The notes under the pieces: model-generated
Seen by the model: only the letters and a program-made list of their open reading frames with translations
The model's database searches: none
Told to the model about the DNA's origin: nothing
Shown here: positions 9,396 through 26,934 of the stretch, in pieces
Layout of the letters: the number at the start of each line of letters is the position of its first letter
Position numbering within the stretch: position 1 is the first letter of the stretch
Made by a program: the position numbers and the translations under genes
Origin: a virus
Taxonomy: Duplodnaviria; Heunggongvirae; Uroviricota; Caudoviricetes
IMG/VR virus record: IMGVR_UViG_3300032167_002310
DNA: 64,000 nt
Reading direction: 5' to 3' (one strand)

Positions 9396-9406
9396 GACAC
9401 GCCTCC

Positions 9407-9661: not shown

Positions 9662-9680
9662 AAAAATACCAACCTCTTTC

Positions 9681-9878: not shown

Positions 9879-9888
9879 ATGAACCTCC

Positions 9889-10200: not shown

Positions 10201-10391
10201 AGTATCGACCTCTTTCTTTTTTCTTTCTTTCTTTATCTTACATATATATTATAACATATTTTTTATAAAAAATCAAAGAAGCCTACTGGTGACCAGCAGG
10301 CTTCCTTATATTATCTATCATAAAATATGCCTACAACGAGGCAAACAATGTATATGCCTATGATTAGGCAACTGAAAAACGCTCTCATATG

Positions 10392-10664
10392 TTACTCCTG
10401 GTTGCAAAACGGGCAATTCTTACCATACTCAAACAGTGCATATGTGCCCTCGCTCAGATAAACATTGCCAAACTCTTCGGTATGCAGCTCGATGCCTCGC
10501 TCATTATCGTGCCAGCTCTTGATAGTGGCACAATAGCCATCAACGCCGTCGCTCACATGGACGTGGGTGAAGTTGTAGTTACCGAAACCCCAGTTCTCAT
10601 TACCGCAGGCCGTCAAACCCAGAACCATCACCAGCACCAAAACAATCGCAAAAATTTTCTTCAT
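10392..10664 (-). CDS. lipoprotein
   Basis: MKK + hydrophobic stretch + LTAC lipobox. Confidence 0.8.
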   Translation of the reverse strand: MKKIFAIVLVLVMVLGLTACGNENWGFGNYNFTHVHVSDGVDGYCATIKSWHDNERGIELHTEEFGNVYLSEGTYALFEYGKNCPFCNQE

Positions 10665-10682
10665 ATTCCCTATCTCCTTTTC

Positions 10683-11399
10683 TTAGTTGAGGACCATGCA
10701 ACGAGTAAGCACGGTCTGCTTTTCGTTTTTATAGACCTTGTGGTCTTTAATCGTACCTCGCAGAGTATACTCGTTACCCTCTACGAGCTGCTTAGCAGAA
10801 GTGGTCCACATGATGACATTACCCTCGTAGTCATGCATCACATGCATCGTGGAACGACCATAGTAGCCATTCATTTCGATTGCTTTCTCAACCGTAACAA
10901 CCACTTCGATTCGGTCGCCGATATTGCCAATGAACTCGGAATCAGAAGGCTCATACAGGAACTGAGCACACCATTCCTTAACCGCAGTTTCATTTTTCAG
11001 GCAAATCTGATCCTCGGCGCAGACATCAGACCAACGAATTTCGATAGGGTCAATGCCAATAGGAATATCCTTAGGCAGCTCTTCAGTAGAAGGGCAATAC
11101 CAACCGAAAATCTTATTGTATTTGCAAACAGAGGCACGGAACCATTCCAGAGCCGCATAAGTATCGCCCTTGAAGATATGAATGAAGCCATTGGCAAAGC
11201 CGAGAGCTTCCTTTTCAGTCTTAGGCTTAGCACGCTCAGTAGGAGCTTCACCATACATCTTGGCATATTCAGCATCGCTATACCAACGAACCTGGCGGGT
11301 GCCGCCCTTGACAGTTTCCACTTTTACATACATTTTTCCGTTTACCGCATAAGGCTGACCCAGCTGTTTCAGACCCTGATAGCTCTTTGCTACTGCCAT
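10683..11399 (-). CDS. phage protein with C-terminal OB-fold-like domain
   Basis: C-terminal beta-rich pattern FIGNIGDRIE...LRGTIKDHKVYKNEKQTVLTRC. Confidence 0.55.
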   Translation of the reverse strand: MAVAKSYQGLKQLGQPYAVNGKMYVKVETVKGGTRQVRWYSDAEYAKMYGEAPTERAKPKTEKEALGFANGFIHIFKGDTYAALEWFRASVCKYNKIFGWYCPSTEELPKDIPIGIDPIEIRWSDVCAEDQICLKNETAVKEWCAQFLYEPSDSEFIGNIGDRIEVVVTVEKAIEMNGYYGRSTMHVMHDYEGNVIMWTTSAKQLVEGNEYTLRGTIKDHKVYKNEKQTVLTRCMVLN

Positions 11400-11508
11400 A
11401 GTATCGACCTCTCTTTTCTTAATTTCTTTTCTTACTTTATATATATATTATAACATATTTTTTTATAAAAATCAAAGAAGCCCTTGTGTCTCCACAGGGC
11501 TTCATATA

Positions 11509-11775
11509 TTAGTAGCCGCATTCCTCTCGGAAGGTCTCGTACGAAATCTCCTCGAAGCCATAGCCGCACTCTTCAAGGTATTCCTCTTCATCCATGCCGC
11601 AAGAAGTATCCCACCATTCAGCTGCATTATCTTCTGTCAGCTCCTGAGCGAACTTGTGCATATTAGCTTCACTTGTGCCGCTGTAATATGCGATTTTATC
11701 CTCACCGCAGAACGGCGTATAGGCAGTTATCCTCCAGTATCGCTTAACCGAGGATGCCGCAGTCGTGTCGGTCAT
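11509..11775 (-). CDS. small acidic protein
   Basis: Start at MTDTT after GGAGGT; D/E-rich. Confidence 0.7.
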   Translation of the reverse strand: MTDTTAASSVKRYWRITAYTPFCGEDKIAYYSGTSEANMHKFAQELTEDNAAEWWDTSCGMDEEEYLEECGYGFEEISYETFREECGY

Positions 11776-11977
11776 ATCCGAATACCTCCTTGAATGCTTC
11801 ATCTACGCTGGCCCACATCTTATCATAATCCTCATCTTCATCACCGTGTTCAGGATACAGCTCGAAGAACAGAGTATCAGAAAAGTAATCCTTATCAATC
11901 GCAGTATTCACCGCGTCGGCGAAAGCCAATTTCCATTTTTCAATCGGAATTCCTCCGACAACTTTACCATGCGACAT
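11744..11977 (-). CDS. small acidic protein
   Basis: ATG 8 nt after GGAGGT RBS. Confidence 0.7.
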   Translation of the reverse strand: MSHGKVVGGIPIEKWKLAFADAVNTAIDKDYFSDTLFFELYPEHGDEDEDYDKMWASVDEAFKEVFGYDRHDCGILG

Positions 11978-12251
11978 TGACAATTACCTCCTTATATCTG
12001 GGGAAAGTATCAGCCAGAAAGCTGATGATGCAGTTTTCCAGACGAATGTGCTCTTCGTTCTGCCAAGAAGCGCCGGTGTATTCAACGGGACCATCTTCCC
12101 AACTGTAACGCTTATACACATCGTTCATATACTGGTCGCCAAACATAATCTGGCGCAAATCGCAGACACGGAAATCATTTCCATAATGAGAAACCATCGC
12201 GTCCTGCAGGTCATAAATATCAATTATCGGCAGAATCTCGTACTTCATCAT
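11964..12251 (-). CDS. hypothetical protein
   Basis: 95 aa ORF; AAGGAG RBS. Confidence 0.7.
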   Translation of the reverse strand: MMKYEILPIIDIYDLQDAMVSHYGNDFRVCDLRQIMFGDQYMNDVYKRYSWEDGPVEYTGASWQNEEHIRLENCIISFLADTFPRYKEVIVNVAW

Positions 12252-12444
12252 TTTCCTTCTCCTTCAGTTCGTCGATAGCCTGTTGCAGGAAATAACCTGC
12301 GTATCTGCGACCCTCGGGGTCACTATTGCCGTCATATACCAGCTGAACCAACTCAATGTGTTCGCAGGTATCATATGCGGGGTGGTCGCGCATGAACTTG
12401 CAAGCCTTGCGGAAGGCAAGCTCAATTACCTTATTTCTGTCCAA
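12220..12444 (-). CDS. hypothetical protein
   Basis: TTG start after GGAGGT RBS within ORF-track ORF 12220-12540. Confidence 0.6.
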   Translation of the reverse strand: MDRNKVIELAFRKACKFMRDHPAYDTCEHIELVQLVYDGNSDPEGRRYAGYFLQQAIDELKEKENDEVRDSADN

Positions 12445-13009
12445 TTTTCTTACCTCCACGCTTTTTCTTTCTCTTGGTTGCTTGGTCGATAGTCTGGCGG
12501 TGGATAGACTCAGTCTTGCTGAGAATACCAGTCTTTGCAAGCAGGTTGTTCATATGAACAGGCTTGTAACCGATAACATCGGCACAGACATTGAGATGAC
12601 CCTCTCTCTTGGTACCCTTGTGGTCGTGACCGTGAATGTTGAACGCCCAAGGAATTTCCACAGGCTCGTGAGAGAGCAACAGCTTCTCACCAATCATCAG
12701 AGGACCAGAGTAAACCTCATCGAATACTTCGTTGTAAACAGTATGACCTACATCGTGGTTGCCGCAAATGAGAACCTTGTAGCCACGAATCTGACGAGCA
12801 TATTCAATGTCGCCAATGTCACCGAGGAAGATGATGGTATCCTTACGACCAACGCAAGCGTTAATCATCTTTACCATTTCCTCGTCAGAAGGACGGTTAG
12901 GCATGCCTGCGCGCAGGTCTTCATCACCGAAGTGAGGGTCAGAATACAGCCACACGGTCTGCTTACACCATCTCTCGTTAAAAATTTCATAAACACCACT
13001 CAGAGCCAT
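12431..13009 (-). CDS. calcineurin-like metallophosphoesterase
   Basis: Motifs SDPHFG, LGDIG, GNHD, SHEP, HGHDH. Confidence 0.9.
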   Translation of the reverse strand: MALSGVYEIFNERWCKQTVWLYSDPHFGDEDLRAGMPNRPSDEEMVKMINACVGRKDTIIFLGDIGDIEYARQIRGYKVLICGNHDVGHTVYNEVFDEVYSGPLMIGEKLLLSHEPVEIPWAFNIHGHDHKGTKREGHLNVCADVIGYKPVHMNNLLAKTGILSKTESIHRQTIDQATKRKKKRGGKKIGQK

Positions 13010-13026
13010 ATTCAGACCCTCCTTTC

Positions 13027-13287
13027 TTAAATCTTAATTCCGTCTCCCTCGTCCTCTCGCAGTTCATCGAGAACAGACTTAGAAATCTGAATGATACAGC
13101 CACTGCAATCCCACTCACTCAGACGAACATCAATTACTGCGTCCTTACCGTAGTAGTCAATGACCTTGGTGATGGCATCGGGATAGCTGTCGGCGCAGAT
13201 AACGCCGCAATAAATCATTTTATCGAGCTGGTTCTCAACAACCATAGACTCTTCGTAAACACGAACTTCATACTCGAAATAACCCAT
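13027..13287 (-). CDS. hypothetical protein
   Basis: 86 aa; TAATG coupling with upstream gene. Confidence 0.7.
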   Translation of the reverse strand: MGYFEYEVRVYEESMVVENQLDKMIYCGVICADSYPDAITKVIDYYGKDAVIDVRLSEWDCSGCIIQISKSVLDELREDEGDGIKI

Positions 13288-13583
13288 TATTCAACCTCCT
13301 TAGGCTCATAACCCCAGTTCTCACACCATTCAACATACTCTTCATAGGTTGCATCGTACCAGTCGAAATCAACATAGTTCTCCAGATAGTCTTCATAGTC
13401 CTCATCAGAGTACTCTTCACCCCAACCGAAGTGAACATATGCATAGGATTCTGCGTTATCGCGAGCCCAGTCGCAAACAGTTTCGTTGATAATCGCTTCG
13501 GCGGTTCCATCTTCGAAGAAGAAAACCTCCTCAGAGTCACAGCCGCAGTAACCATTTCCACAATGAGCTAAAATAATCATCAT
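13287..13583 (-). CDS. small highly acidic protein
   Basis: 98 aa, E/D/Y/W-rich; first gene after a repeated promoter. Confidence 0.75.
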   Translation of the reverse strand: MMIILAHCGNGYCGCDSEEVFFFEDGTAEAIINETVCDWARDNAESYAYVHFGWGEEYSDEDYEDYLENYVDFDWYDATYEEYVEWCENWGYEPKEVE

Positions 13584-13695
13584 ATTATCAACCTCGCTTT
13601 TATCTCTTTCTTTATCTTACATATATATTATAACATATTTTTATAAAAAAATCAAAGAAGCTCTCTTGAATTCACCAAGAGAGCTTCCTATATCA

Positions 13696-14490
13696 TCACT
13701 TAGACTCTGAAGCCACGAGCTCGCTCGCCTTCTTCGTCATAAGGTAAACCATCATATCAGTGCCTACGCCACTGCTTCGCAGACCAAGAGCATAATCGGC
13801 AACAACTTTTCCCTTGTGTTTATATTTGAAGTCATCCCAGATTACTCTTGCAAGTACTTCAGAGATTCCGGCTTGTTCCATCAGCACTTTGTAGCGCTGG
13901 AAGTACCACTCATTCATTTCTTTTTTGTCGGCCATCCACTTGATGAAATCCAAATACTCTTCATCAGTAGTGACATAGTCCACATCGTAGAAATACTCAC
14001 GAGCCTCTGCGACAGGAACTTCCTCGATGAACTTTACCGCTTTTGCAGCCATCTTCATATAGGTCGGGCCCATATGGTACAGACTGTAGCCCCATTCCGG
14101 TCCATAGGGGTGTTCGCGCACCCACTCTTCAGCTTTTATCCATTCGCTTTTACGAATCAAAACTTCAACTCGGAAAAGGCGTCCATAATGATAAAACTGT
14201 CGCACGTACTGGGGTTTAGGGCAGAAATGAAATCCTTTAGAGCAGACATCTGGTTCTTCACCATCGGCAAGCTCGTAGGTCTGTCCAATCTCGAACTGAA
14301 ATTCTCCGTATCCACGCATATAATAGTCGGTGGCTTTCCATCCGGGAACCCAAATCCATTCGTCCCCTTCATCCTCGATAAGTTTATCAACTTGTTTCTC
14401 ATAAATCTCCTGTTGGTTCATAGTGCATGCAGCGAGCGCACGTTCTGTGTCGATCGCGCCTTGTGCCGCCTTTTTTATAAATCCGAACAT
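13696..14490 (-). CDS. phage hypothetical protein with KATD...FQFEIGQTY...CSKGFHFC domain
   Basis: 264 aa; GGAGGAG RBS; motif is familiar from other phage hypothetical proteins. Confidence 0.7.
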   Translation of the reverse strand: MFGFIKKAAQGAIDTERALAACTMNQQEIYEKQVDKLIEDEGDEWIWVPGWKATDYYMRGYGEFQFEIGQTYELADGEEPDVCSKGFHFCPKPQYVRQFYHYGRLFRVEVLIRKSEWIKAEEWVREHPYGPEWGYSLYHMGPTYMKMAAKAVKFIEEVPVAEAREYFYDVDYVTTDEEYLDFIKWMADKKEMNEWYFQRYKVLMEQAGISEVLARVIWDDFKYKHKGKVVADYALGLRSSGVGTDMMVYLMTKKASELVASESK

Positions 14491-14503
14491 CGTGCGCTCC
14501 TCC

Positions 14504-14532
14504 TTGACTTTTTGTCGAAATTTTGGTATAAT
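14504..14532 (+). promoter_or_regulatory. rightward sigmaA-type promoter antisense to surrounding genes
   Basis: TTGACT-N17-TATAAT with extended -10 TG. Confidence 0.7.
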
Positions 14533-14574
14533 ATATGTAGGAAACTTCAGAAAGGACTGAAAATCGTGACAATT

Positions 14575-15054
14575 TTACTTTGGTTTCTTTTGGTTATACT
14601 TGGCGCAAGTACCGAAATCGCGTCTCGCGCAACCTTCGCCATCCCAGCATTTGCACTCTGCCTTGCAGATTGCATCAATGCGCTCCGGGTTAACAATCTG
14701 CGTGCGGGCTCTCATATTGCCCTGTTGGATAGTCTTGATGACCGTAACCGGAATCTGTGGTTTATAAGATTCATCTGTCAGTTTACACTTGGTGAAACCG
14801 GTGCACATCACGCAGGTTCCAAACTTTTCGTTACAGGAAGGACACAGTTCAATGAACGAACCGTCTTCCGTTTGCTCCAAAATTGCGGGTCCAAGATACA
14901 TTTGGCCGCAGTACGCGCAAGTCCCAAGCTGGTCCTCAGTTGTGTGTCTTGAGCAAAAGTCTTTATCAAGGTCGATTCTCATTCGGAGAAGCTGACATAC
15001 AAGATTCTCAGGGTCGGCCAGGGCGCAAGTTCTACAAAATTTTTGAGTATTCAT
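14575..15054 (-). CDS. Cys-rich (zinc-binding) hypothetical protein
   Basis: 159 aa with multiple CxxC; AAGGAG RBS. Confidence 0.75.
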   Translation of the reverse strand: MNTQKFCRTCALADPENLVCQLLRMRIDLDKDFCSRHTTEDQLGTCAYCGQMYLGPAILEQTEDGSFIELCPSCNEKFGTCVMCTGFTKCKLTDESYKPQIPVTVIKTIQQGNMRARTQIVNPERIDAICKAECKCWDGEGCARRDFGTCAKYNQKKPK

Positions 15055-15146
15055 AGACTTGTACTCTCCTTTTATTTCTGTTAAAATTTTTCGGCATTTT
15101 TAAAGTTTGTCAATTTTTCGTGACGGAACGAAAATTGACGGCACCG

Positions 15147-15458
15147 TTAGGAAACTCTGCAATATACATATAGTGACGGATTAGGATATTTTGCTATGAT
15201 GTCGGGTATTGCAGCGAGGATTTTTGCAAAGTCTTCGAAAGGCAATGCGATTTCATCGGTATTCATCTCGTCAGACTCGCCGCAATCACAACCATACTGC
15301 TTTACACCGACAAAGTAATCTCCGCCGTAACCATAACAGTCGGTCTGAATGCCGTATTCATCTTTGATTTCGTCGGGGAGTTCATCATATCGTCCCTGCT
15401 TCAGTTTCCAACCGTAAACAACACCTGCTGAATAATCTACTGACATATTATCTACCAT
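15147..15458 (-). CDS. hypothetical protein
   Basis: 103 aa immediately downstream of a repeated promoter. Confidence 0.7.
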   Translation of the reverse strand: MVDNMSVDYSAGVVYGWKLKQGRYDELPDEIKDEYGIQTDCYGYGGDYFVGVKQYGCDCGESDEMNTDEIALPFEDFAKILAAIPDIIAKYPNPSLYVYCRVS

Positions 15459-15711
15459 CCTTTTACTTTATATATATATTATAACATATTATTTTGTAAA
15501 AATCAACTGCGGAGATTTTTGTTAAAATTTTGTACATCTTATTGAGTTGTTAAAATTTTGTACATCTCTATAATTGTTAAAAAAATGTGTTAAATTTTTA
15601 GACACCTTGATATTTTGTTAAAATTTTGTACATCTATATAAATGGGTAGATTCTGTTAACCCATTAACAACTTTGTTCATATATTATGTATGGCAAAGGA
15701 GGAATAGTTGC

Positions 15712-16326
15712 ATGCTTGAAATGAAAAGGGACTCTCGTCAGGTCCCGAAGGTAAAACAGATTTGTGCTGATAAGAGATATTATGACATTCTCTATGCTCA
15801 CCTTCAGTGCATTTCTTCTTATGACGAAAAGACTGGTGAGAGAACTGTTGGGAAGAAAGAGATTAACTTCTCAAAGTTATCTGCCATGTTTAATATGAGC
15901 CGTCAGACAGTTTCTAAGAAGTTTAACAATCTCGTAGATTTAGGGCTCGTCACGAAGAAAGACGAGAATTCGTTTTTAATTCTACCTTTGGCGAATGATA
16001 TCGCTTCACTCGTGCCATATAAGACTTTGAAACTGATTACTGATACATTAAGTGAGCACAGTATTAATACATATGTGTATCTATTTAATAGATACTATGC
16101 AACTGGTTGTAAAGCATTCCAGTTCACATTGGCTCAAGTGAAAGAGAATATTGGAATTTGTTCTACAACAAGAAGTAACGATGATACTATTACGAATATT
16201 CTTTATGTATTGGAGAAATTGGGACTGATTAAATACCATATGACTACAAAGGAACAGGACGATACTTCATTTAAGAATATCAAGACAATCTATGAATTAG
16301 AATGGCTTACGAATGAGATTTGTTAA
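15712..16326 (+). CDS. tandem winged-helix DNA-binding protein, putative replication initiator or regulator
   Basis: ATG after AGGAGG; HTH FSKLSAMFNMSRQTVSKKFNNLVDLGLV and a second wHTH FTLAQVKENIG...ILYVLEKLGLIKY; flanked by iteron-like repeats. Confidence 0.6.
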   Translation: MLEMKRDSRQVPKVKQICADKRYYDILYAHLQCISSYDEKTGERTVGKKEINFSKLSAMFNMSRQTVSKKFNNLVDLGLVTKKDENSFLILPLANDIASLVPYKTLKLITDTLSEHSINTYVYLFNRYYATGCKAFQFTLAQVKENIGICSTTRSNDDTITNILYVLEKLGLIKYHMTTKEQDDTSFKNIKTIYELEWLTNEIC

Positions 16327-16571
16327 AAATTTAGACACCTATATAAAAGTGTTAAAATTTTGTACATCTAAGCAATGTGTTAAAAATTTTCGGCAATAGT
16401 TGTTAAAAATTTTCGGCAAAATCGGCATTTTTGTTAAAAAAATAGTATCCTATTAAATAATAATAGAGAGTGGCTCAATAGTGGGGAAGGATTAAAAATC
16501 CTTCGGACCTTCGGTCCTCAGGCTTTTATAATCCTTCCTTAGCGAGCTCGTTTCGCGTGGGAGGATCGGCG

Positions 16572-16787
16572 ATGCAAGTTAAGTTTAAATGGGGAACAAA
16601 GGAACAGATTTTAGACCTTATGAAAGTAAGACCAAGTATTACTGAAGCCGAGGTATACTTTGATAAGGAAGATGGTAGCCTTTATGTTGTATCTTTCAAA
16701 AGGAAAAATGAAAATCCTGTCGGATTTTCTACAAAAACTTCGTTTGAAGATTATATATATCAACAGTTAAATGAAATTGAAAACTGA
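16572..16787 (+). CDS. hypothetical protein
   Basis: ATG after GGAGGA RBS. Confidence 0.6.
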   Translation: MQVKFKWGTKEQILDLMKVRPSITEAEVYFDKEDGSLYVVSFKRKNENPVGFSTKTSFEDYIYQQLNEIEN

Positions 16788-16801
16788 ATTGAAAAATCGG
16801 T

Positions 16802-16830
16802 TTGATTTTCAAATGAAAATATGATATAAT
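16802..16830 (+). promoter_or_regulatory. sigmaA-type promoter for 16913-17335
   Basis: TTGATT-N17-TATAAT. Confidence 0.7.
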
Positions 16831-16912
16831 ATAAGTAAAGAAATAGAAAAATGAATTGAAAATTCATTCCCATTTCGAAAAATGAAATGAAAAAAACGAA
16901 AGGAAAAATGAG

Positions 16913-17335
16913 ATGGAACATATTGGTAAGTATAAAGGATATAATGTATATAAGACTCCAAAGAGTGAGATGAAGAAAGACCAGGAAAAAGGAGTGCTTT
17001 ACGCAGTTGCTGAGACTGGTGAACTGATTCTTAATGGAGAAGTTGTTGGTAAGGTGGCGTTTGCGTCTGGCTCTGTTACTGAGTATGATGACCATCGTTG
17101 TTATGCTTATAAATATCCAGTTGAACGCGAAGCGGTCAAGACTTATAAATATGAAGATAATGTACCAGTAAGTAAGCCTGGTAGGGGTAAGCGCAGAGAA
17201 GTTGCAGTTGATGATGTGTTGAAGAGCACGGTTGTTGACCCTACAGATTTAGATAAGATGATTAATGATTTCATCATTGCCGCACGTAATATGGAGATTA
17301 CCGATTTAGTTGGTGAGTTTAAGGCCGAGGTTTAA
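16913..17335 (+). CDS. hypothetical protein
   Basis: 140 aa ORF with own promoter and downstream hairpin/U-tract. Confidence 0.75.
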   Translation: MEHIGKYKGYNVYKTPKSEMKKDQEKGVLYAVAETGELILNGEVVGKVAFASGSVTEYDDHRCYAYKYPVEREAVKTYKYEDNVPVSKPGRGKRREVAVDDVLKSTVVDPTDLDKMINDFIIAARNMEITDLVGEFKAEV

Positions 17336-17402
17336 CCCTCGGCTTTTTCTTTTGCTCTTGGTTATGAATGGTGAAAATCCAGTAAAATCCAGTGGAAGTG
17401 GT

Positions 17403-18420
17403 GGCCGATCGGCCCGCGACATGCTGATCAAAATTCCATCGTCACCGTCTTCGTTACCCTGTGCGTTTAAATTCTTAAACGCACATATAATATAAAAAGG
17501 CCCTCTCCATTTCTGGAGAGAGCCTCTTCTTTTTTGCCTCTTGGGCTATGTTCTTGTTCAGTCTACGGAGCAAATTTTTAGTCCAGTGAGGACGACTTCA
17601 CCTTAAGCCAAACCGTTGGCTTTTAGAAATGCTCCAAGCGCATCTACATTAGGCTCAATCTTGCCGCCTACAGGTGCCTTAGGAGCGTGATCTGCATGGT
17701 CCATGATACCTTTCAGCATCTTCTCAAACTCTTTGAGCTTGCGCACCTCGGCATCAAGCTGCTCGAAAGCGGCGTCAATCATTTCAACAATCTCAGCTGC
17801 ATCGATCTCCTGATCAGCGATTGCCTCGGCGACAGCAGAACCAGCGTGGAACTCGAGGATGTAATCTTTAATGAGCGCGCCAATTTCCTCAATGTACTCG
17901 GCCTTAGCCTTTGCAGTGCTTGCCTTTTCCTGCTCAGCGGCGAACTCGGCATTAGCTGCGTTGAGTGCGTCTACCAGCTCCTGGGCAATAACATCTGCGC
18001 TCTCACCAGCCTGCAGTCTGGCAAGAATATCTTTCTGATTTACCATAGGTAATTACCTCTCTTTCATATCTTATGTATATATTATACCATATTTTTTTAT
18101 AAAAATCAAATGCGGTCGGTGCGCGTCCCGATCGGCAATGACTCCTTTTTTTATATTATATCAAATTTAATTCAAAATGTCAAATTTTTCTCGGGCTGAA
18201 CACAAACTCGTGAGAAGATGTAAACGCGGCGATATGAGCCCGAAACCAGGCATTTTGAATTAAGATTTTGCGGCCAGGATGGTCATATGGTGCGAACCGA
18301 TCGGGAAAACAAGAACCGATCGGCGGCCGGGTTTTACGGGAAATTGAACGCATATGGAAGGGCCGCACTTTCCACCGAAAAAATCGCATATGGGGGTACC
18401 GATCGGAAATTCGGTACCTG
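17403..18420. repeat. palindrome island: CCGATCGG x5, GATC x9, CATATG x3, GGTACC x2
   Basis: CCGATCGG at 17405, 18128, 18297, 18316, 18399; other GATC at 17426, 17689, 17804, 17812. Confidence 0.85.
17603..18046 (-). CDS. acidic helical hypothetical protein
   Basis: 147 aa; GAGGT RBS; promoter at about 18075-18109. Confidence 0.8.
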   Translation of the reverse strand: MVNQKDILARLQAGESADVIAQELVDALNAANAEFAAEQEKASTAKAKAEYIEEIGALIKDYILEFHAGSAVAEAIADQEIDAAEIVEMIDAAFEQLDAEVRKLKEFEKMLKGIMDHADHAPKAPVGGKIEPNVDALGAFLKANGLA

Positions 18421-18517
18421 GCCTCCGTCCAGGGCCCGCTCTACCTACTATTATTATACCATACCCGGGCGCACTTGTCAAGTGTTTTTTGAAACAAAAA
18501 TAAAAAATCCGAGGTTT

Positions 18518-18784
18518 TTACACCTCGGACGCAGGGGAATAAAAGGAATGGTTTTCACAGCAGTTACAGCAAGCCACCTTGTCGGTCGTATCTTGGTCGG
18601 CATTGTGGCAAGTAGAACAACCTCGGCACTCATCGTGACAGATGTAATCATCATCGGGGTCCCAGAAGACAGCGAAGTCGTCGCACTCATTCATAGGGTC
18701 ATCCAGTGTACACTGGCAGGGGATGGGACTGTCGCTGTAGTAAGGACAGTCCCAACCATTCATAGGGCAGTGGATGTGAGCCAT
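18518..18784 (-). CDS. Cys-rich small protein
   Basis: HCPMNGWDCPYY...ECDDF; TAATG coupling. Confidence 0.75.
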   Translation of the reverse strand: MAHIHCPMNGWDCPYYSDSPIPCQCTLDDPMNECDDFAVFWDPDDDYICHDECRGCSTCHNADQDTTDKVACCNCCENHSFYSPASEV

Positions 18785-19032
18785 TACTGCTTACCCCCAC
18801 AAATCGCCATGATGTTCGCCATCACTTCCATCATAGCCAGACCTGCTTCGATTTCCTGCTTTTCACCATAGGAAATGTGGTCGATAGTGACAGTACCCTC
18901 AACGAGGTCAACAGTCATGCCAGACGCATAGCGAATTTCACCAGTCGCATCATTCACAAGGATAACTTCCTTGTCACCATGGTCAGCCATAACCTCAGAC
19001 AGCATTGCAATCATCTCAGAAATCTTCATCAT
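18784..19032 (-). CDS. hypothetical protein
   Basis: 82 aa behind promoter and GAGGT RBS. Confidence 0.75.
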   Translation of the reverse strand: MMKISEMIAMLSEVMADHGDKEVILVNDATGEIRYASGMTVDLVEGTVTIDHISYGEKQEIEAGLAMMEVMANIMAICGGKQ

Positions 19033-19090
19033 AGTATCTACCTCTTTCTTTGTTTTGTTGTATTTATTATAGCATACTTTGTGGGGTTTG

Positions 19091-19291
19091 TCAAGGGGTT
19101 TCAGAAATTATTTTCCAAAATGTTTGTTGCCATTCTTCCCACATCGGAATGAGCATTTCTTCATCTTGGGGGTTCAACTCACAATGGTAAACCAGTGCCC
19201 CATAGGCTTGTGCTTCAAACACGCTCGCAGAAACAGGGCGCTGTTCAGCAAGTTGTAATCGTGATAGTACAAACTTCGTAACTTGTTCCAT
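19091..19291 (-). CDS. hypothetical protein
   Basis: Start moved to MEQVTKF behind GAGGG RBS and promoter. Confidence 0.65.
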   Translation of the reverse strand: MEQVTKFVLSRLQLAEQRPVSASVFEAQAYGALVYHCELNPQDEEMLIPMWEEWQQTFWKIISETP

Positions 19292-19355
19292 TTTGTTTCC
19301 CTCACTTTCTATACATAGTATACACCATTTCGGGAGAAATGTCAACAGGTAATTT

Positions 19356-19433
19356 TGCACAATTTTCGCTCCAAAACTTTGTGGAATCTGCTAATTGACG
19401 AAATTCCGGCCCGCCGCAGGCGAAAACGGCCGG
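19356..19433. promoter_or_regulatory. dual-box module 1 (N14) plus GC hairpin
   Basis: TGCACAAT 19356, TTTGTGGA 19378, hairpin 19406-19433. Confidence 0.8.
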
Positions 19434-19479
19434 TTTTTGTGCAAAATGACGAAAAAATCGCCCTTTTGGGGCGATTTTT

Positions 19480-19848
19480 CTACTTTTTCGGCTTTCTTTT
19501 CTGCACAAGGGTCAATTCATAGTCATTTTCACCAACTTTGAAGGCGATTTGGCGCTCTTTATTGGTGATTTCGACCATTTCGTAGCCTTTTTCGCTCAAA
19601 AATGCCGAAATTTCTGCAATTATCTGCGATTTTGTCGCATTTTCCTTGCGAACTGGCGCTTTTCGTGGGGTTTTCACAGTTTTTTCGCCCACATTTGCGT
19701 ACTTCTTGGCGGCTTTCTCTTCTTCTTTGGAAAGGTCGAAGGACATTCGCTCGCCCCTGTCGATTGCCTTATCGTCTGCGATGACTTGCAGAGCCTCTTC
19801 TTCGCTGATACCCAAATTTTTCATCAGCTTTGCAACCTGTTCTGTCAT
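19480..19848 (-). CDS. hypothetical protein (paralog of 24089-24469)
   Basis: Shared LGISxEEAxQxxADDxAIDxG and EITNxERQ motifs. Confidence 0.8.
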   Translation of the reverse strand: MTEQVAKLMKNLGISEEEALQVIADDKAIDRGERMSFDLSKEEEKAAKKYANVGEKTVKTPRKAPVRKENATKSQIIAEISAFLSEKGYEMVEITNKERQIAFKVGENDYELTLVQKRKPKK

Positions 19849-19971
19849 AGTTATCAACTCCTTTACTGTACCCTTATTATAGCACAGTTAAGGCTATCTG
19901 TCAAGGGGTTTTGCAAAATTTTTTTCTACCGCCCTTTTAGGGGAGGGGGCATTTCTGCCCCCTTGGGGGAG

Positions 19972-20331
19972 TTAGGCTACTTTGGAGAAGTAAGCCTTTC
20001 TCTTTTCCTCTGTTCTCTCAACAGAGCCATCAGTTACCAACTGTCTGACAAGGGCAGACACTCTCTGATTGGACAACTCTGCACACGCAGGCACAGACTT
20101 CATCAAATCTGTGATAGTGTACTTCTTGCCGACTTCCATACCTTCAAGGATTTCAGCCTTGATGCCTTCGTTGGCAACCTGTACAGCAGTAGGTTTCTTT
20201 TCAGCAGAGTTTTTCTTTGCGAGCAATTCCAACTCGTGGTCGATGAACGCAATCTCGTCTGCGTTCAAGGCATAGTTTGCCTTAATCTGTTCAAACATTT
20301 CTCTCTTAGTCATCTTCTTAGTATTAGCCAT
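19972..20331 (-). CDS. winged-HTH protein, paralog 1
   Basis: YTITDLMK...LSNQRVSALVRQLV...VERTEEKRKAYF. Confidence 0.75.
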   Translation of the reverse strand: MANTKKMTKREMFEQIKANYALNADEIAFIDHELELLAKKNSAEKKPTAVQVANEGIKAEILEGMEVGKKYTITDLMKSVPACAELSNQRVSALVRQLVTDGSVERTEEKRKAYFSKVA

Positions 20332-20619
20332 AGTATCAATTCCTTTCTGGTTTGTTGGGTTTTCCTTCCCTTTGATGATTTAATTATATCATAGGTTGAG
20401 CGATTTGTCAAGAGGTTTTTTGAAGTTTTTTTATTTTTTTTCTCAACTCTCTGTTGACTTCTCTCTCCCTTTGATGTATTCATTATAGCACATCTTGGGG
20501 GATTTGTCAAGAGGTTTTTTGAAATTTCTTAAAAACTTTTTTTGACCTCTATCAATTCGGCTCTCCCTTACTGACAATAATAGTATACCACAGACCAAGA
20601 GAAAATACAAGTGTCAAAA

Positions 20620-20755
20620 TGCACAAATTTTAGGAAAATTATTTTTTATTTTTTGTGCAACTTTTCTCTTGACAAAATTTGCGGCCGGTGGTATAATGGA
20701 AAATTCCGGTCACGCTGGCCGTGACCGGGCCGGCGCTTTGTGCAAAATGCACAAA
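20620..20755. promoter_or_regulatory. dual-box module 2 (N24) with rightward promoter, hairpin and an extra TTTGTGCA-AAA-TGCACAAA palindrome
   Basis: Boxes 20620 and 20652; TTGACA 20669, TATAAT 20692; 9-bp stem 20706-20728; palindrome 20737-20755. Confidence 0.85.
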
Positions 20756-20832
20756 ACCCCCAGGGGAGCGAATCACCCCAGGGGTCAAGTGAAAATTGAG
20801 AGAGGGGAGGGAGGGGCTTGCGCCCCTTGCCC

Positions 20833-21192
20833 TTAGTCCACCTTGGAGAAGTAAGCCTTGCGCTTCTCCTCAGTGCGCTCCACAGAACCCTCAGTAACCA
20901 GCTGGCGCACCAGTGCGCTCACTCGCTGATTGGAGAGGTCAGCGCACGCATCGACACTCTTCATGAGGTCAGTAATGGTGTACTTCTTGCCACTCTCCAT
21001 GGCTTCGAGGATGTCAGCCTTGATACCCTCATTTGCGACCTGAACCGCAGTCGGCTTCTTCTCTGCGGAGTTCTTCTTTGCCAGAAGCTCCAGCTCATGC
21101 TCAACGAAAGCCTTTTCGTCAGCAGTGAGGTTGTAGTTTGCCATAATCTGGCGGAAGTAGTCAGCCTTAGTCATCTTCTTAACATTTGCCAT
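20833..21192 (-). CDS. winged-HTH protein, paralog 2
   Basis: Highly similar protein to 19972-20331. Confidence 0.75.
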   Translation of the reverse strand: MANVKKMTKADYFRQIMANYNLTADEKAFVEHELELLAKKNSAEKKPTAVQVANEGIKADILEAMESGKKYTITDLMKSVDACADLSNQRVSALVRQLVTEGSVERTEEKRKAYFSKVD

Positions 21193-21319
21193 AGTATCGT
21201 CTCCATTTCTCGCTATTGGTTGCGACCCTTTTTGAAGTTTCGTTCCTCTCTTGGAACATCTTAATTATACCACATGGGGTTTGATTTGTCAAGAGGTTTT
21301 CGAAAAAAATTCGCGACTT

Positions 21320-21512
21320 TTTTTCTTATCTTCGCTACTCGCCCACTTCTCAGCCTTGTTGCTGGCCCAGCCCTAAGTCTACCCTCACCACGCAATCGCT
21401 TTGCCACGCTCTGTGGGGGCTACTGGGATTCGTGTATCCTTTGGGTTTCAGTTCGCTTCGTGTCTGTTTCCACTGTCCTTGGTGGCTTTCGCTGTCAAGG
21501 TTCCCCTCTTGA
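21320..21512 (-). ncRNA. candidate structured ncRNA A
   Basis: Own promoter at 21519-21549; no credible ORF; GNRA-capped mini-hairpins (gcGAAAgc, tgGAAAca) and several stems. Confidence 0.45.
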
Positions 21513-21559
21513 CTGTAATCATTATACCACACTTTGCGGTATTTGTCAAGACCTTTTTT

Positions 21560-21755
21560 CAAGATTCTTGACTTTTTTGTGTGAGGTATTGTATCGCGCA
21601 TAATCCCCTATTACTTCAACCTCTGGGGCACTGGTTCACACTTGTATACCGCAAACGCGAACACCTTGCGGTCAGAAGCAAGAGCCTTGGCTCAAGGGGG
21701 AAGTCTTACATCGCTCTCGTGGGCTTCCCTCTTCGGGTCGCTTCCCTTAACTTCT
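21560..21755 (-). ncRNA. candidate structured ncRNA B
   Basis: Own promoter at 21761-21790; no credible ORF; stems accGCAAggt, gagcCAAGgctc, gggaag/cttccc. Confidence 0.45.
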
Positions 21756-21896
21756 GTATTTATTATAGCACACTCGGCGCTATTTGTCAAGAGGTTTTTT
21801 AACTTTTTTCAAAGTTTTTTTGAGCTCCTCTTGGGTGCTCCCCTCACCTGACATAGATAGTATACCACATCCAGAAGCAGATTGCAATAGACAGAA

Positions 21897-22016
21897 TGCA
21901 CAAATTACAGGATTTTTATTTCTCGATCTTTGTGCACATTTTCTCTTGACAAAAATGCCGGGGTATGGTATAATGGTAAATTCCGCGCGCTACGTTCGTG
22001 CGCGCGGCGCTGAAAT
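21897..22016. promoter_or_regulatory. dual-box module 3 (N24) with rightward promoter and hairpin
   Basis: Boxes 21897 and 21929; TTGACA 21946, TATAAT 21969; stem CCGCGCGC/GCGCGCGG 21983-22007. Confidence 0.85.
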
Positions 22017-22037
22017 CTCAAACAAAAAAGCGAGGGA

Positions 22038-22196
22038 TTAACCCTCGCATTCCTCGTTGCGGTCTTCAATTCGTTCCTTGATTGCCTGGATGGTAGTACC
22101 AATCAACAGACCAAGCATCTGCACACACAGACAGCCAACAACACCAACGAGCACCCAACCGATGTGGTCAGGAATTTGACAAATAAGTTCTAACAT
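22038..22196 (-). CDS. small membrane protein (52 aa)
   Basis: Manual translation MLELICQIPDHIGWVLVGVVGCLCVQMLGLLIG...; promoter and GAGGT RBS. Confidence 0.7.
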   Translation of the reverse strand: MLELICQIPDHIGWVLVGVVGCLCVQMLGLLIGTTIQAIKERIEDRNEECEG

Positions 22197-22253
22197 AGTA
22201 TCAACCTCTTTCCTTAATTTCTGTATTCATTATACCATGGGGGAGGGCTTTTG

Positions 22254-22991
22254 TCAAGCCCTTTCCCCACTATTTTTGAAAACTTTTTTCAAGTCCATTT
22301 CCTTGCGTGTTCTCTGGGGGATTCTCCAACACGCAGGGGAAATTTTAGTTTCAAGTTTTCTGTGCATTGCGTAACACTTTGCGAGAATTTCAACTTCAAT
22401 TCTCACATCCTCAAGTCCTGTGTGGCTTTCCACAAAATCAACTTGCTTTTTCAGAAACTTGTAACAAGCCTCAGCACTTGTCTGAATGTTGTCGCTTTCG
22501 CTAATTAAACCATTCTGTAAAGCAAATTTTACATAGGAAACTTGATTGAGAACCACTTGACAAGCCATGTTCCAAATGCAAATGTAATCAGTTCCCCAAG
22601 GGAAGAACCAACGCCAGCGAGATTGAGAACAATAGCGAATTGTATTATTCAATGCTCTCTTGTCAAAACCCATGTTGTAAGCACCCACCTTGCGAATGGA
22701 ATACTTTTTCATGTCCTCATGGATTTGCTTGCGAATGTTGAAAATGCTTTTCAAAGTGCGAGTGCCATTTTTAATGTCATCCCAATACTGGGGAATCTTT
22801 TCAGCAAAGTAGGCACTTTGCATCAAGTCTTTGTGGTCGAGGAACATTTCAGAAACCACAAAACTTCTTTCAAGGTAAATCTTGCCTTGTCTGTCACAGA
22901 TTGCATAGCCAATGTCATAGCACAAAGGCTGTTCAATGGTGTTTGCTGTTTCAGTGTCGATGATTAAAAATAATTCTTTCTTGCGAGCCAT
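22254..22991 (-). CDS. DEDDh 3'-5' exonuclease (DnaQ-like)
   Basis: ExoI IIDTET, ExoII AYNMGFD, ExoIII ESHTGLED. Confidence 0.85.
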   Translation of the reverse strand: MARKKELFLIIDTETANTIEQPLCYDIGYAICDRQGKIYLERSFVVSEMFLDHKDLMQSAYFAEKIPQYWDDIKNGTRTLKSIFNIRKQIHEDMKKYSIRKVGAYNMGFDKRALNNTIRYCSQSRWRWFFPWGTDYICIWNMACQVVLNQVSYVKFALQNGLISESDNIQTSAEACYKFLKKQVDFVESHTGLEDVRIEVEILAKCYAMHRKLETKISPACWRIPQRTRKEMDLKKVFKNSGERA

Positions 22992-23097
22992 GGGTATCAA
23001 ATCCTTTCGTATCAACTGTAATTATTATAGCACTTTCATTTTGATTTGTCAATAGGTTTTTGAAAAATATTTTGCGCCCGGGCGAAAAGCTGACCCA

Positions 23098-23571
23098 TTA
23101 AAGGGTCTTGCTTTCGCTCACAAAATACTTCACTTCATACTGTGCGAGAATGTCACGCACCTTTGCACTCTCTTTCTGTGTTGCACAGTAGAAATTGAAA
23201 AGGGTATATTTTCCAACATTTTCCACATAGTTGTGGGGAATGTCTTTCAAATCAAAATGTACTGCGTCAGTCCATTCGTGGGGAACAGTTGCTTCAACTT
23301 TCCAAAGTTTGTCCTTGCGTGCCTTTTCTTCGCACCACTTAACAACATACACACCAACAAGGTTGCACAGAGCCACAATGCCAGCCTTTAAGTAAAGGTC
23401 AAGTTCACACATTAAGTAAACAGTGACAATTGTGTAAAGACCAAAAGCAACAGCATTTACGATTGCGGCGACCCCTTTACCGCACTTCACAGTGGCGATA
23501 CTTTTCACTGTCTGAATGATAACATTCAGAATGTTAAGAATGATAAATGTAATAAGTAACTGTGTATTCAT
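23098..23571 (-). CDS. membrane protein, DUF2179/UPF0316-like
   Basis: Three N-terminal hydrophobic helices (NVIIQTVKSI...GxxxxAAIVNA) plus a soluble C-terminal domain. Confidence 0.6.
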   Translation of the reverse strand: MNTQLLITFIILNILNVIIQTVKSIATVKCGKGVAAIVNAVAFGLYTIVTVYLMCELDLYLKAGIVALCNLVGVYVVKWCEEKARKDKLWKVEATVPHEWTDAVHFDLKDIPHNYVENVGKYTLFNFYCATQKESAKVRDILAQYEVKYFVSESKTL

Positions 23572-23614
23572 AGCGTTTACCTCTTTCGTTTCTTTCTGTA
23601 ATTATTATAGCACA

Positions 23615-23860
23615 TCAATGCTCGTTTGTCAATACCTTTTTTTCACTTTTTATCATATTTTTTGTAAAAGCATCGGAGAACTCATCCCCATACTCATCGC
23701 TGACAAGATAGGCGAGGTATTCCATTACAGTGCTCACCCCATACATGAAATGCTCATTGCCATTCTTTGCATCGTACCGACCGCAGAACAGACCGCATTC
23801 TGTCATTCCGTCAACTACCTTTTCGATTACTTTCTTTTCCTCTTGGTTCAGTTCTAACAT
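23615..23860 (-). CDS. hypothetical protein
   Basis: Start moved to MLELNQEE behind AGGAGG RBS and promoter. Confidence 0.7.
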   Translation of the reverse strand: MLELNQEEKKVIEKVVDGMTECGLFCGRYDAKNGNEHFMYGVSTVMEYLAYLVSDEYGDEFSDAFTKNMIKSEKKVLTNEH

Positions 23861-23922
23861 CGTTCTATCCCTCCTGACATTATTAGTATACCACGTTTCG
23901 GGAGATTTTGCAATAGGCAATT

Positions 23923-24086
23923 TGCACAAATTTTCGCCCGCATTTTTGTTGAAATTAACTATTGACAGGAATACCGGCCCGCGCACTTGTGCACGGGCGG
24001 CCATTATACCACAGCCGGCCCGATTTGTCAAGTGGTAAAAATGCACAAAAATTAGGGCGAAAGTTTGTGACTTTCGCCCATTGACA
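23923..24086. promoter_or_regulatory. dual-box modules 4 and 5 (both N14) with intervening hairpin
   Basis: Boxes 23923/23945 and 24042/24064; TTGACA 9 bp right of each right box (23962, 24081); hairpin 23977-23998. Confidence 0.8.
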
Positions 24087-24088
24087 AG

Positions 24089-24469
24089 TTAGGAACGAGG
24101 GGCAGACAGTACCACCTTAAACTTTCGCCCATTGCAGTGGAAAAGCATTTCCCTCTCGGCGTTCGTAACCTCAATTCCCTCAATGCTTTCCAATCCCTCA
24201 AGGGCTTGCTTGATTTCGTCAATCAGCATTGCCTTGTCGTTGTCGGCTTTGCGTTCTCTCTTGGTTGTGGTCTTGGTTGTGGTGGTGGTCTTTGTTCCAA
24301 TGGCTCTTGCCTTTTTGCTTGCCTTTTCTTGCTCGGCACTCAACTCAAAGAGTTTTGCTCCCTTGTCGATTGCTTCATCATCAGCGACCAACTGTTCGGC
24401 TTCCTCTCGGCTGATACCTAACAGACCCATGTGCTTGGCAATCAGTTTTTCTCTCTCGGATGCTGTCAT
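24089..24469 (-). CDS. hypothetical protein (paralog of 19480-19848)
   Basis: Shared motifs; sits downstream of a wHTH paralog as at 19.5-20.3 kb. Confidence 0.8.
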   Translation of the reverse strand: MTASEREKLIAKHMGLLGISREEAEQLVADDEAIDKGAKLFELSAEQEKASKKARAIGTKTTTTTKTTTKRERKADNDKAMLIDEIKQALEGLESIEGIEVTNAEREMLFHCNGRKFKVVLSAPRS

Positions 24470-24557
24470 AGGCAATCCCCCTTTCTGTAATTACATTATA
24501 CCACACATCAAAGGGGTTGTCAAGGGGAAATTTGCATTTCCCCTTGACTTTTTTCCC

Positions 24558-24917
24558 TTAGTCAGCGAGGGAGAAATAAGCCTTACGCTTTTCCTCAGTT
24601 CGCACAACCACGCCATCAGTGACGAGCTGACGAACAAGAGCAGACACACGCTGGTTGCTCAGTTCGGCACAGGCAGGAATGGTCTTCATCAGGTCAGTGA
24701 TGGTGTAGGACTTACCCTGCTCCATACCTGCGACAATGTCGCCCTTAATGCCCTCATTAGCCACCTGCACAGCGGTAGGCTTCTTCTCGGCACTGTTCTT
24801 CTTTGCGAGCAGTTCGAGTTCGTGGTCAATGAACTCAACCTCAGCCTCAGTCAGAGGGTAGGAAGCCTTAATCTGCTCGAACATCTCACGCTTAGTCATC
24901 TTCTTAGTGTTTGCCAT
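24558..24917 (-). CDS. winged-HTH protein, paralog 3
   Basis: MANTKKMTKREMFEQIKA identical to the paralog 1 N-terminus. Confidence 0.75.
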   Translation of the reverse strand: MANTKKMTKREMFEQIKASYPLTEAEVEFIDHELELLAKKNSAEKKPTAVQVANEGIKGDIVAGMEQGKSYTITDLMKTIPACAELSNQRVSALVRQLVTDGVVVRTEEKRKAYFSLAD

Positions 24918-25308
24918 AGTATCAATCTCCAATCTCGTGGTAGGTCACGACCCAAGTTTTTATTCTGTAAGAGGTGTCCCTCTTTACATTCTTATTATAG
25001 CACATTGGGAGTTGTTTGTCAAGAGGTTTTTTCAACTTTTTTTTTATTTTTTTTGTTGACCTCTCAGTAGGTTTTCCCTTACCTTGTATAACTATTATAG
25101 CATACTCTTTAGGATTTGTCAATACCTTTTTCAAAACTTTTTTAGAAATTTTTTGGTAATGGCTTTTTCCTTTTTTCTATAATAATTATAACATAATTTT
25201 TTTATTTTGTCAATAGGTTTTTTCAAAATCTTTTTGATGGGATTTTGTTCTCTCCCTTACTGACAATAATAGTATACCACATCAGCCACCAAAATACAAG
25301 TGGCAAAT

Positions 25309-25419
25309 TGCACAAAATTACAGGAAAATCTTTGTGCATTTTGCCTATTGACAAATTGCTCGAAAAATGTTATAATGGAAGGTTAGGCCAAAACACCGGT
25401 CCGCGCGCACGTGGACCGG
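25309..25419. promoter_or_regulatory. dual-box module 6 (N14) with rightward promoter and hairpin
   Basis: Boxes 25309 and 25331; TTGACA 25348, TATAAT 25371; stem 25396-25419. Confidence 0.85.
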
Positions 25420-25474
25420 CCGATGCATTTTGGATTTTGAAATGGAAAAAGCGAGGGTTTCCCCTCGCTCTTCC

Positions 25475-25627
25475 TTATCGCGTTCTCTGCTTCGTTGTCA
25501 GCGAATAGGCAACCCCATTCTCAAAAATGACTTCGTCCTTTGTGATGGACGCAACCACCATACCTTCGGGGTTGCTCATGTTTGCGCGAATCTCATTCAG
25601 TGCATTTGCTACTTCTCGAATACTCAT
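25475..25627 (-). CDS. small hypothetical protein (50 aa)
   Basis: Manual translation MSIREVANALNEIRANM...; own promoter, AAGGAG RBS and terminator. Confidence 0.7.
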   Translation of the reverse strand: MSIREVANALNEIRANMSNPEGMVVASITKDEVIFENGVAYSLTTKQRTR

Positions 25628-25701
25628 AGTATCATTCTCCTTTTCTTTTGGTTTGTACTTGTATTATAGCATAGGTTTGGGGGTTTGTCAACCCCCATTT
25701 T

Positions 25702-25947
25702 TTACTTTTTTGCGCTTACGCTCTTGGGACTGTCATTGGTCAAGGGCATCTGCGGAGTGGGAGCTTGTGCTTTGGTGATGATTGCATCAACCTGCTCATA
25801 GAGTTTGTAAGCCTTGCTCGCCTTGCGATAGACTTTCTTCAACTCGGAGTAGGTAAGAGCATTGAACTGCTCGTCACTCATTGTGACCCCAACCTTTGCC
25901 AACTTGTTGCGGATAGATTTCAAACTCATTTCGGAAAACATTTTCAT
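25702..25947 (-). CDS. basic hypothetical protein
   Basis: 81 aa with own promoter and GAGGT RBS. Confidence 0.7.
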   Translation of the reverse strand: MKMFSEMSLKSIRNKLAKVGVTMSDEQFNALTYSELKKVYRKASKAYKLYEQVDAIITKAQAPTPQMPLTNDSPKSVSAKK

Positions 25948-26890: not shown

Positions 26891-26934
26891 AAGTACAGTA
26901 TAACACACTCCCCAATAGAAGTCAATAGTCAAAA

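Follow-up and report, generated by a model that had tools for sequence, protein, structure and literature searches.

A GATC cluster around one gene

The window analysed here is a 64-kb stretch of IMG/VR record IMGVR_UViG_3300032167_002310 (Caudoviricetes), which differs in 1 of 64,000 bases from the 191,974-bp phage genome that holds it (G000; a single contig, 98% complete). Within it we studied the "island", that is, the cluster of GATC sites at 17,407-18,401 with the surrounding locus of approximately 1 kb, which encloses P0001, the gene of a 147-residue acidic protein. A preliminary description of the window, made from the sequence by eye, had reported that GATC is scarce nearly everywhere except in this island, and exact counting bore this out. 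The window contains 22 GATC compared to approximately 230 expected from base composition, and the genome as a whole 43 compared to 584 expected under a Markov model (ratio 0.074); CTAG, with 294 expected under the same type of model, does not occur in the genome at all. Nine of the 22 GATC lie in the island (17407, 17426, 17689, 17804, 17812, 18130, 18299, 18318 and 18401), three in 1-17,400 (11009, 14452 and 16564), two in 18,410-32,720 (21925 and 30234) and eight in the late region. The Poisson probability of at least nine GATC in 1 kb is 3e-12.

The 8-base palindrome CCGATCGG, hereafter the box, is present in five copies (17405, 18128, 18297, 18316 and 18399), all of them inside the island, and these are also the only copies in the 191,974 bp of the genome, where 0.03-1.1 would be expected. 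The GATC cluster is non-random and stems from CCGATCGG repeated around one gene. The other palindromes listed earlier for the non-coding tract were likewise recovered, namely three CATATG, GGTACC at 18395 and 18413, CGGCCG at 18324 and GGGCCC at 18432, and nowhere else in the genome are GC-rich 6-bp palindromes as dense as in the island, where 340 nt hold 8-9 of them compared to a mean of 0.83 (sd 1.07). A literature search for CCGATCGG returned nothing relevant, and a GenBank phage search with the island DNA and the P0001 protein gave no match. The features of the locus, from right to left, are as follows.

18518..18784, minus strand: P0003, the last gene of the early block, encoding an 88-residue Cys-rich protein (open reading frame with translation; syntenic in relatives)
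18507-18530: terminator of P0003 (terminator scan)
18453..18481, minus strand: promoter P1, a perfect TTGACA-N17-TATAAT with TG, second-to-last of the early (TTGACA) class
18369..18454, minus strand: 5' domain of the leader, reading CGGGCC, GACG, CCGAATTTCC joined to the box, and CCCATATGC; contains box 1 (18399-18406) and overlaps the -10 end of P1
18184..18446, minus strand: P1 leader, approximately 263 nt, GC-rich, with CCGATCGG at 18399, 18316 and 18297 and CATATG at 18387, 18351 and 18284
18155..18183, minus strand: promoter P2, the last perfect TTGACA-N17-TATAAT, conserved in the alignment
18112..18135: box CCGATCGG (18128-18135) and degenerate box CCGACCGC (18112-18119, minus-strand reading), between the P2 start and the P3 -35 element
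18081..18109, minus strand: promoter P3, the rightmost TTGATT-N17-TATAAT, with an A/T spacer
17603..18046, minus strand: P0001, gene of the 147-residue acidic protein, conserved across the phage family
17494..17529, minus strand: terminator of P0001, strong and bidirectional, with a 16-bp stem and U-run, conserved
17385..17458: downstream conserved non-coding block, single-copy, with terminators on both sides
16913..17335, plus strand: P0002, the convergent neighbour, 140 residues, with a terminator at 17321-17346; adjoins the downstream block in all clades

P1 (18481-18453) is the leftward promoter that had been described as reading across the non-coding tract. The downstream block carries a 12-bp palindrome, GGCCGATCGGCC, at 17403-17414, a GATC half-like site at 17426 that lies 19 bp from the last box, and three hexamers of the ACGRTG type at 17436-17458. 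Two small open reading frames, one of 69 residues at 18180-18389 and a Ser-rich micro-frame in the downstream block, were rejected as genes, since they lack a ribosome-binding site and the indels of relatives are not multiples of three.

The island was also said to mark the boundary between two promoter regimes, which could be narrowed considerably. On the minus strand, 29 perfect TTGACA-N17-TATAAT promoters are found, all at 18,183-31,926 and none to the left, and nine TTGATT-N17-TATAAT promoters with A/T spacers, all at 2,904-18,109 and none to the right. As the last TTGACA promoter stands at 18,183 and the first TTGATT promoter at 18,109, the switch falls within the approximately 70 bp that separate P2 from P3, and coincides with the box at 18128. 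The same class switch occurs at the same place in a 194-kb relative (G001), where the TTGACA class extends to 192,938 and the TTGAYT class begins at 193,001. At the other end of the early promoter block, positions 32500-32720 hold a G/T-rich non-coding tract of strong strand asymmetry that ends in ATACCC-G7-TGTAT; the tract bounds the block on its outer side, and the 29 early promoters are all directed away from it.

With regard to the genes, P0001 is served by three promoters of two classes and has an invariant N-terminus, MVNQKDILARLQ.GESAD. P0003, directly upstream of the island, encodes 15 Cys and many Asp residues and is kept in relatives; it matched no family.

Conservation and concerted change of the boxes

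Homologues of P0001 were found 180 times in metagenomes, and 20 syntenic loci with P0001 at 60-92% identity constitute the close clade. At least 20 related phages share a common layout, consisting of P1, a GC-rich leader of approximately 260 nt with two to four boxes, P2, a box, P3, P0001, terminators, and the non-coding block with its own box. Relative to the P0001 start codon, the boxes of the 20 relatives stand at about -88, about -255, -338 to -408 and +610 to +704, while the middle boxes have been gained or lost as modules of 19-45 nt; GATC pairs spaced by 19 bp recur in the leader and in the downstream block. In the clade alignment, the box columns are 0.98-0.99 conserved compared to 0.70 for the leader overall, and the first 60 nt of the P1 transcript, in the 5' domain, are 0.87-1.00 conserved. 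Each genome has one significant nhmmer copy of the 5' domain (E 2.5e-25 in the present genome, 7e-22 in G001) and a single copy of the downstream block (E 6e-17 and 3.5e-21, respectively). Two contigs ending 7 nt past the downstream box (L016 and L020) were considered as genome ends and rejected, being two strains from one assembly and judged to be an assembly break at a shared conserved word.

Every clade member holds 7-11 GATC in the locus, with four to six CGATCG cores per 1.2 kb, and the flanks are depleted of GATC to a varying degree (observed/expected ratio 0-0.46). The proposal that GATC is retained here despite genome-wide avoidance thus gained ground, and the comparison supports the view that the GATC sites of the island are maintained by selection against that avoidance. 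Absence of the island from relatives had been named as a result that would speak against its significance; instead, it is present and syntenic in them.

These data also bear on the idea that the island is recently acquired foreign DNA whose GATC have not yet been purged. The GC content of 0.46-0.54 at 17.4-18.9 kb, compared to 0.40 for the genome, would fit such an origin, as would the fact that the relatives are recombination mosaics at this locus. However, the gene, leader and block belong to the syntenic core of the whole phage family, including relatives at 40% identity, and the box positions are conserved. A foreign origin is hardly credible on these grounds and is refuted by the conservation data.

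More distant clades are represented by G001, in which P0001 is 40% identical, and by contigs L040-L043. They keep the architecture of a non-coding tract (approximately 480-630 nt), a P0001 homologue, terminators, a conserved block and a convergent P0002 homologue, and P1 is kept in G001 as it is in the close clade. Their homologous loci contain no GATC, in G001 and three other clades alike. The G001 genome lacks GATC altogether (0 vs 567 expected) and also ATTAAT (0 vs 104), and is mildly depleted of CTAG (171 vs 316), so that the avoidance of restriction words differs between the two genomes, which points to different host restriction landscapes. In the GATC-free clades the first box reads CCGCCCGC, while the distal box and the downstream block read CCGGGCGC. 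Across its 194 kb, G001 has exactly two copies of the 10-mer GCCGGGCGCA, of which one lies in the leader and the other in the downstream block, and L040-L043 are alike in this respect. The matching change in leader and downstream block means that separate boxes changed in concert, and as the boxes of the sister clades lack GATC, the conserved unit is the CG-NN-CG box and not GATC. To judge from this comparison, GATC is probably incidental to the box version of this clade, and the GATC letters themselves probably matter little.

When windows were scored for their load of avoided palindromes, the homologous leader was the top window genome-wide in both the present genome and G001 (z 8.6 and 8.3); the avoided words differ between the two, with GATC itself dominating the score in the former and GC-richness contributing in the latter. 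The G001 leader (192,600-192,940; L026:2049-2375) is a CTAG island, with 5 CTAG in approximately 330 nt compared to approximately 0.3 at the genome rate. In L040-L042 (L040:1868-2501), the leader 5' domain of approximately 60 nt is tandemly duplicated and follows a terminator-like hairpin in place of P1, which these contigs lack, and their P2 is of the TTGATT class.

The GATC-free clades weigh heavily on the suggestion that GATC is itself the signal, either as a methylation-sensing switch or as a packaging (pac) site of the P1 type that depends on methylated GATC. The pac site of phage P1 consists of clustered TGATCA/G hexamers, the cleavage of which is controlled by Dam methylation, and here too GATC-containing repeats are clustered in two groups in a phage genome. 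The density of nine GATC in 1 kb, the consistently high numbers in every clade member, including non-box GATC in the P0001 reading frame, and a GAGATC at +239 kept in nearly all clade members all speak for a role of the tetramer. On the other hand, the search for a methyltransferase proposed earlier found no member of the D12 (Dam), N6_N4 or C5 methylase profile families in the genome, leaving a phage-driven methylation switch unsupported, and the sister clades keep the homologous element without any GATC. What is conserved and repeated is the 8-mer CCGATCGG, and neither GATC as such nor TGATCA/G; TGATCA is present in one copy only (17425-17430), which is not conserved, and one GATC in the reading frame has been lost in L001 by a synonymous change. 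The terminase is also distant, with the gene of its large subunit at 37330-39069, some 19 kb off, so that the island is neither in nor near it. Neither form of the GATC-signal proposal is supported by this comparison, and we consider it very improbable, though GATC may have a role in this clade.

Leader transcript, replication origin and genome ends

Part of the evidence from the leader could be read at the level of RNA. In that case, box 1 of the P1 leader would pair with the distal box, within a structured leader or a small non-coding RNA, and this pairing would control the stability or processing of the transcript or its termination before P2. In every clade the first box is complementary to the distal one; in the GATC-free clades the two read CGCCCG and CGGGCG, and the switch to a palindrome preserves their pairing. 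RNAalifold pairs the first and last CCGAUCGG. Moreover, covariation that includes G-U pairs is seen in two hairpins of the distal leader, H3 and H4 (H4: UA, 9; AU, 6; UG, 2), tandem boxes spaced by 19 nt fold into a perfect 8-bp hairpin, and in L002 and L010 the hairpin H5, which precedes P2, has a U-run and is a true terminator.

Several observations run counter to an RNA function of the boxes. The whole leader folds no better than shuffled sequences (z -1.8 and -1.6), and its 5' domain has no consensus fold (-1.8 kcal/mol, 0 covarying pairs). In 18110-18445, no Rfam match was obtained even at E <= 10, nor any tRNA or tmRNA. The hairpin GGTACCGA/TCGGTACC, which the preliminary description had pointed out in the GGTACC region, takes uncompensated mismatches in relatives; the tandem-box hairpin is missing from L004 and L013, and this window lacks H5. 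The downstream box, placed between convergent terminators and beyond strong ones (in L040-L042, behind two tandem terminators), is therefore shielded from transcription. L040-L042 keep the 5' domain without P1. A contig from an RNA library that covers P0001 stops at 18055, which is weak evidence, and the missing cover of the leader is no evidence. The absence of a better-than-shuffled fold, the conservation of the 5' domain as primary sequence, the shielded downstream box and the clade lacking P1 together favour the boxes as protein sites on double-stranded DNA. An RNA function of the boxes therefore appears rather unlikely, and we favour their recognition, as double-stranded DNA, by a putative protein, with the distal leader hairpins as an ordinary RNA feature.

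The put sites of HK022 and the nut sites of lambda are cis-acting leader RNAs just downstream of early promoters. The present locus is similar in that a highly conserved element begins within the first 75 nt of an early transcript, with terminators after it. It differs in that a conserved two-stem fold is lacking, the element outlives the promoter in one clade, and one copy of the box lies outside any transcript.

A further possibility is that the locus is an accessory part of a neighbouring replication origin, either activated by transcription or timed by GATC; oriR of P1 and oriC carry GATC repeats. Approximately ten AT-rich iterons of 20 nt (TGTTAAAATTTTGTACATCT and variants) at 15079-16453 flank a tandem winged-helix gene (15673-16326) whose matches in PHROG are ScpB-like or initiator-like. 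These iterons, at 15.08-16.45 kb, are a plausible replication origin, which is better assigned there than to the island. The iterons and the initiator-like gene are only 1-2 kb away, and three strong promoters together with the three hexamer repeats by the downstream box would fit an origin-like platform. However, the boxes are unrelated to the iterons, from which two genes and terminators separate them, no DnaA boxes are found in 12,121-23,218, the phage lacks Dam, and the sister clades manage without GATC. An accessory origin function is thus improbable. A plasmid-type partition centromere was rejected as well, as the genome, 98% complete, gave no match to ParB_N, AAA_31 or RHH_1 and thus has no partition genes.

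The preliminary description also proposed an injection-stop signal or the inner boundary of a long terminal repeat. In this case, the early block (from approximately 17.4/18.45 to 32.7 kb) would be terminally redundant, and the locus would serve as a signal for the packaging machinery or cause a pause in DNA entry as in T5. The injection-stop signal (iss) of T5 is a conserved tract of repeats and palindromes straddling the inner end of the long terminal repeat, with a partner copy kilobases away (10.1101/866236). Here, a unique, single-copy, conserved non-coding element full of repeats and palindromes likewise closes the first-expressed block, 14 kb with 29 consensus promoters, each directed inward from the non-coding edge at 32.7 kb, and a partner element insulated from transcription lies approximately 0.7-1 kb away. 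Contig depths in run X8 provide a weak hint in the same direction. K-mer depths are 190-222 for the six contigs located within 19.56-28.67 kb, and 145.7 (14.77-19.5 kb) and 168.7 (28.6-35.3 kb) for the two that span the proposed edges. If the inside is assumed to be present twice, our own arithmetic places the edges at approximately 17.5 kb (17.0-18.0) and 33.0 kb (32.1-33.8), near the downstream block and the 32.7-kb non-coding edge; the depths are per-contig k-mer means, from a sample with many related strains, and not copy numbers. The X8 assembly (Logan contigs) breaks repeatedly at the repeated promoters in 19558-28674.

Against a terminal repeat, contigs bridge both edges, although a collapsed repeat would be bridged too, and the contig data, which cover 24 sequencing runs, show no read ends. 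No copy of the box is found at the 32.7-kb edge, the terminase gene is 19 kb away, and the boxes are fixed relative to three promoters, which a terminal signal would not need. DnaA boxes, which would be expected by analogy with T5, are lacking: TTATCCACA with at most one mismatch is absent from 12,121-23,218. The present genome and G001 have self-overlaps of 1661 bp at 97.7% and 385 bp at 96%, respectively, and both records are flagged linear; these are circular assemblies that ran into a strain variant and are uninformative on physical ends. The packaging type could not be read from terminase relatives, as the record of Geobacillus virus E3 carries no terminal-repeat annotation in its first 15 kb and the literature was unproductive. 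Overall, a terminal-repeat boundary or entry pause is possible but doubtful.

Judged by its anatomy, the T5 iss would nevertheless be a fair functional analogue. Repeats and palindromes crowd both the present locus and the iss, or Repeat Region 3 (Davison 2020, 10.1101/866236), each of them a unique non-coding tract that is conserved among relatives with divergent neighbouring genes, ends the first-expressed block and has a related partner element at some distance. In contrast to T5, the present locus has no paired DnaA boxes, contains three interleaved promoters and encloses a gene, and its terminal repeat and two-step entry are hypothetical, the phage being known from sequence alone.

A box array at the early/middle boundary

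The reading that we favour, if tentatively and with less than full conviction, is a unique array of boxes, bound by a putative protein, that controls and insulates the boundary between early and middle transcription. As expected of an operator array, the boxes are repeated, palindromic and at fixed positions relative to the promoters. A sequence-specific, probably dimeric, DNA-binding protein would occupy the CG-NN-CG boxes and would block or pause RNA polymerase arriving from the early promoters, so that expression of P0001 would be handed over to P3. If the protein also bridged the downstream box and those of the leader, P0001 would be looped out and a boundary created between the temporal classes. 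The GATC of this clade would then be a by-product of the box sequence, held by purifying selection against a restriction-driven purge of GATC. Protein binding, roadblocking and looping are what we infer from the positions of the boxes. Counted from the P1 start, they lie at approximately +38 to +45 and beyond, and counted from the P2 start at approximately +10 to +18, which would suit a roadblock. The box at 18128 is centred approximately 57 bp upstream of the P3 start, and in L004, L005, L008 and L009 a complete CCGATCGG stands in place of the degenerate second box, directly against the P3 -35 element and centred approximately 40 bp upstream of the start; such positions are typical of activators.

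Looped arrays of this kind are known from other phages. In pac sites of the SPP1 type, the pacL and pacR boxes are bound and looped by the small terminase, and OL and OR of lambda are looped operators. The present locus resembles them in having short boxes in two groups, hundreds of bp apart, which overlap promoters and could be bridged by a multimeric protein. It is unlike them in lacking an adjacent gene for a small terminase or a repressor, in the shortness of its box (8 bp) and in having a putative binder.

The only positional candidate for a binder, by inference, is P0002. In its predicted structure, a beta domain at the N-terminus is joined by a basic disordered linker to C-terminal helices. 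It is the only conserved neighbour with a basic linker, its homologues (26-33% identity) adjoin the downstream block in G001 and in L040-L042, and its divergence from clade to clade parallels that of the boxes. A Foldseek comparison of the predicted fold with the PDB gave no match at E <= 0.001, and the best Z in a wide VIA-align search was 2.8. P0001 gave no Pfam or PHROG match and its neighbours in the ESM Atlas were uninformative; its AlphaFold model is all-helical and of low confidence (predicted local distance difference test score, pLDDT, 56). The RNA-library contig mentioned above (433 nt, from a relative) covers 17635-18055. As a guess, P0001 could be a DNA mimic or an anti-restriction protein.

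A number of points weigh against the box array as a protein-bound boundary. Profile searches found no helix-turn-helix, ribbon-helix-helix or ParB protein next to the locus, P0002 has no recognisable DNA-binding fold, and the acidic nature of P0001 speaks against it as the binder. With 8 bp, CCGATCGG is short for a classical dimeric operator, and a single-copy locus is more typical of pac, origin or terminal signals than of operator sets. The covariation of H3 and H4 with G-U pairs means that at least part of the leader works as RNA, and since in the GATC-free clades the distal box is the reverse complement of the first, the concerted change to a palindrome fits pairing in RNA or in single strands equally well. 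Finally, the GATC within the P0001 reading frame, present in every clade member (2-4 in most, 3 here), are unexplained by the boxes; we read them as an incomplete purge in a recombination-mosaic region.

A bolder reading would join the box array to the genome ends. The promoters, ribosome-binding sites and terminase relatives point to a Gram-positive host. The locus could then be the Gram-positive counterpart of the T5 injection-stop or terminal-repeat boundary, a unique nucleoprotein signal that ends a host-takeover block of approximately 15 kb, terminally redundant and first to enter, in a family of uncultivated phages of gut Bacillota with genomes of roughly 190 kb. The purged palindromes (GATC in this phage, CTAG and GGCC in the 194-kb relative) would be tolerated here alone because the signal is essential. 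We regard this combination as unlikely, albeit not far-fetched. If the terminal-repeat or entry-pause reading were true, the T5-type mechanism, which is still not understood, would extend to phages of Gram-positive hosts.

Operators, pac sites and cis sites of the iss type are known as kinds of element, and we found no earlier description of this particular element, of its family-wide conservation or of the concerted recoding of its boxes under restriction avoidance. Restriction-site avoidance can thus reveal essential cis-elements, in that words which cannot be purged mark a functional site, and in a lineage that was forced to purge such words completely, the box was recoded at all copies together. 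The early-to-middle boundary of a widespread family of uncultivated gut phages has moreover been narrowed to approximately 70 bp, which provides a defined target for finding the switch protein or a genome-end signal.

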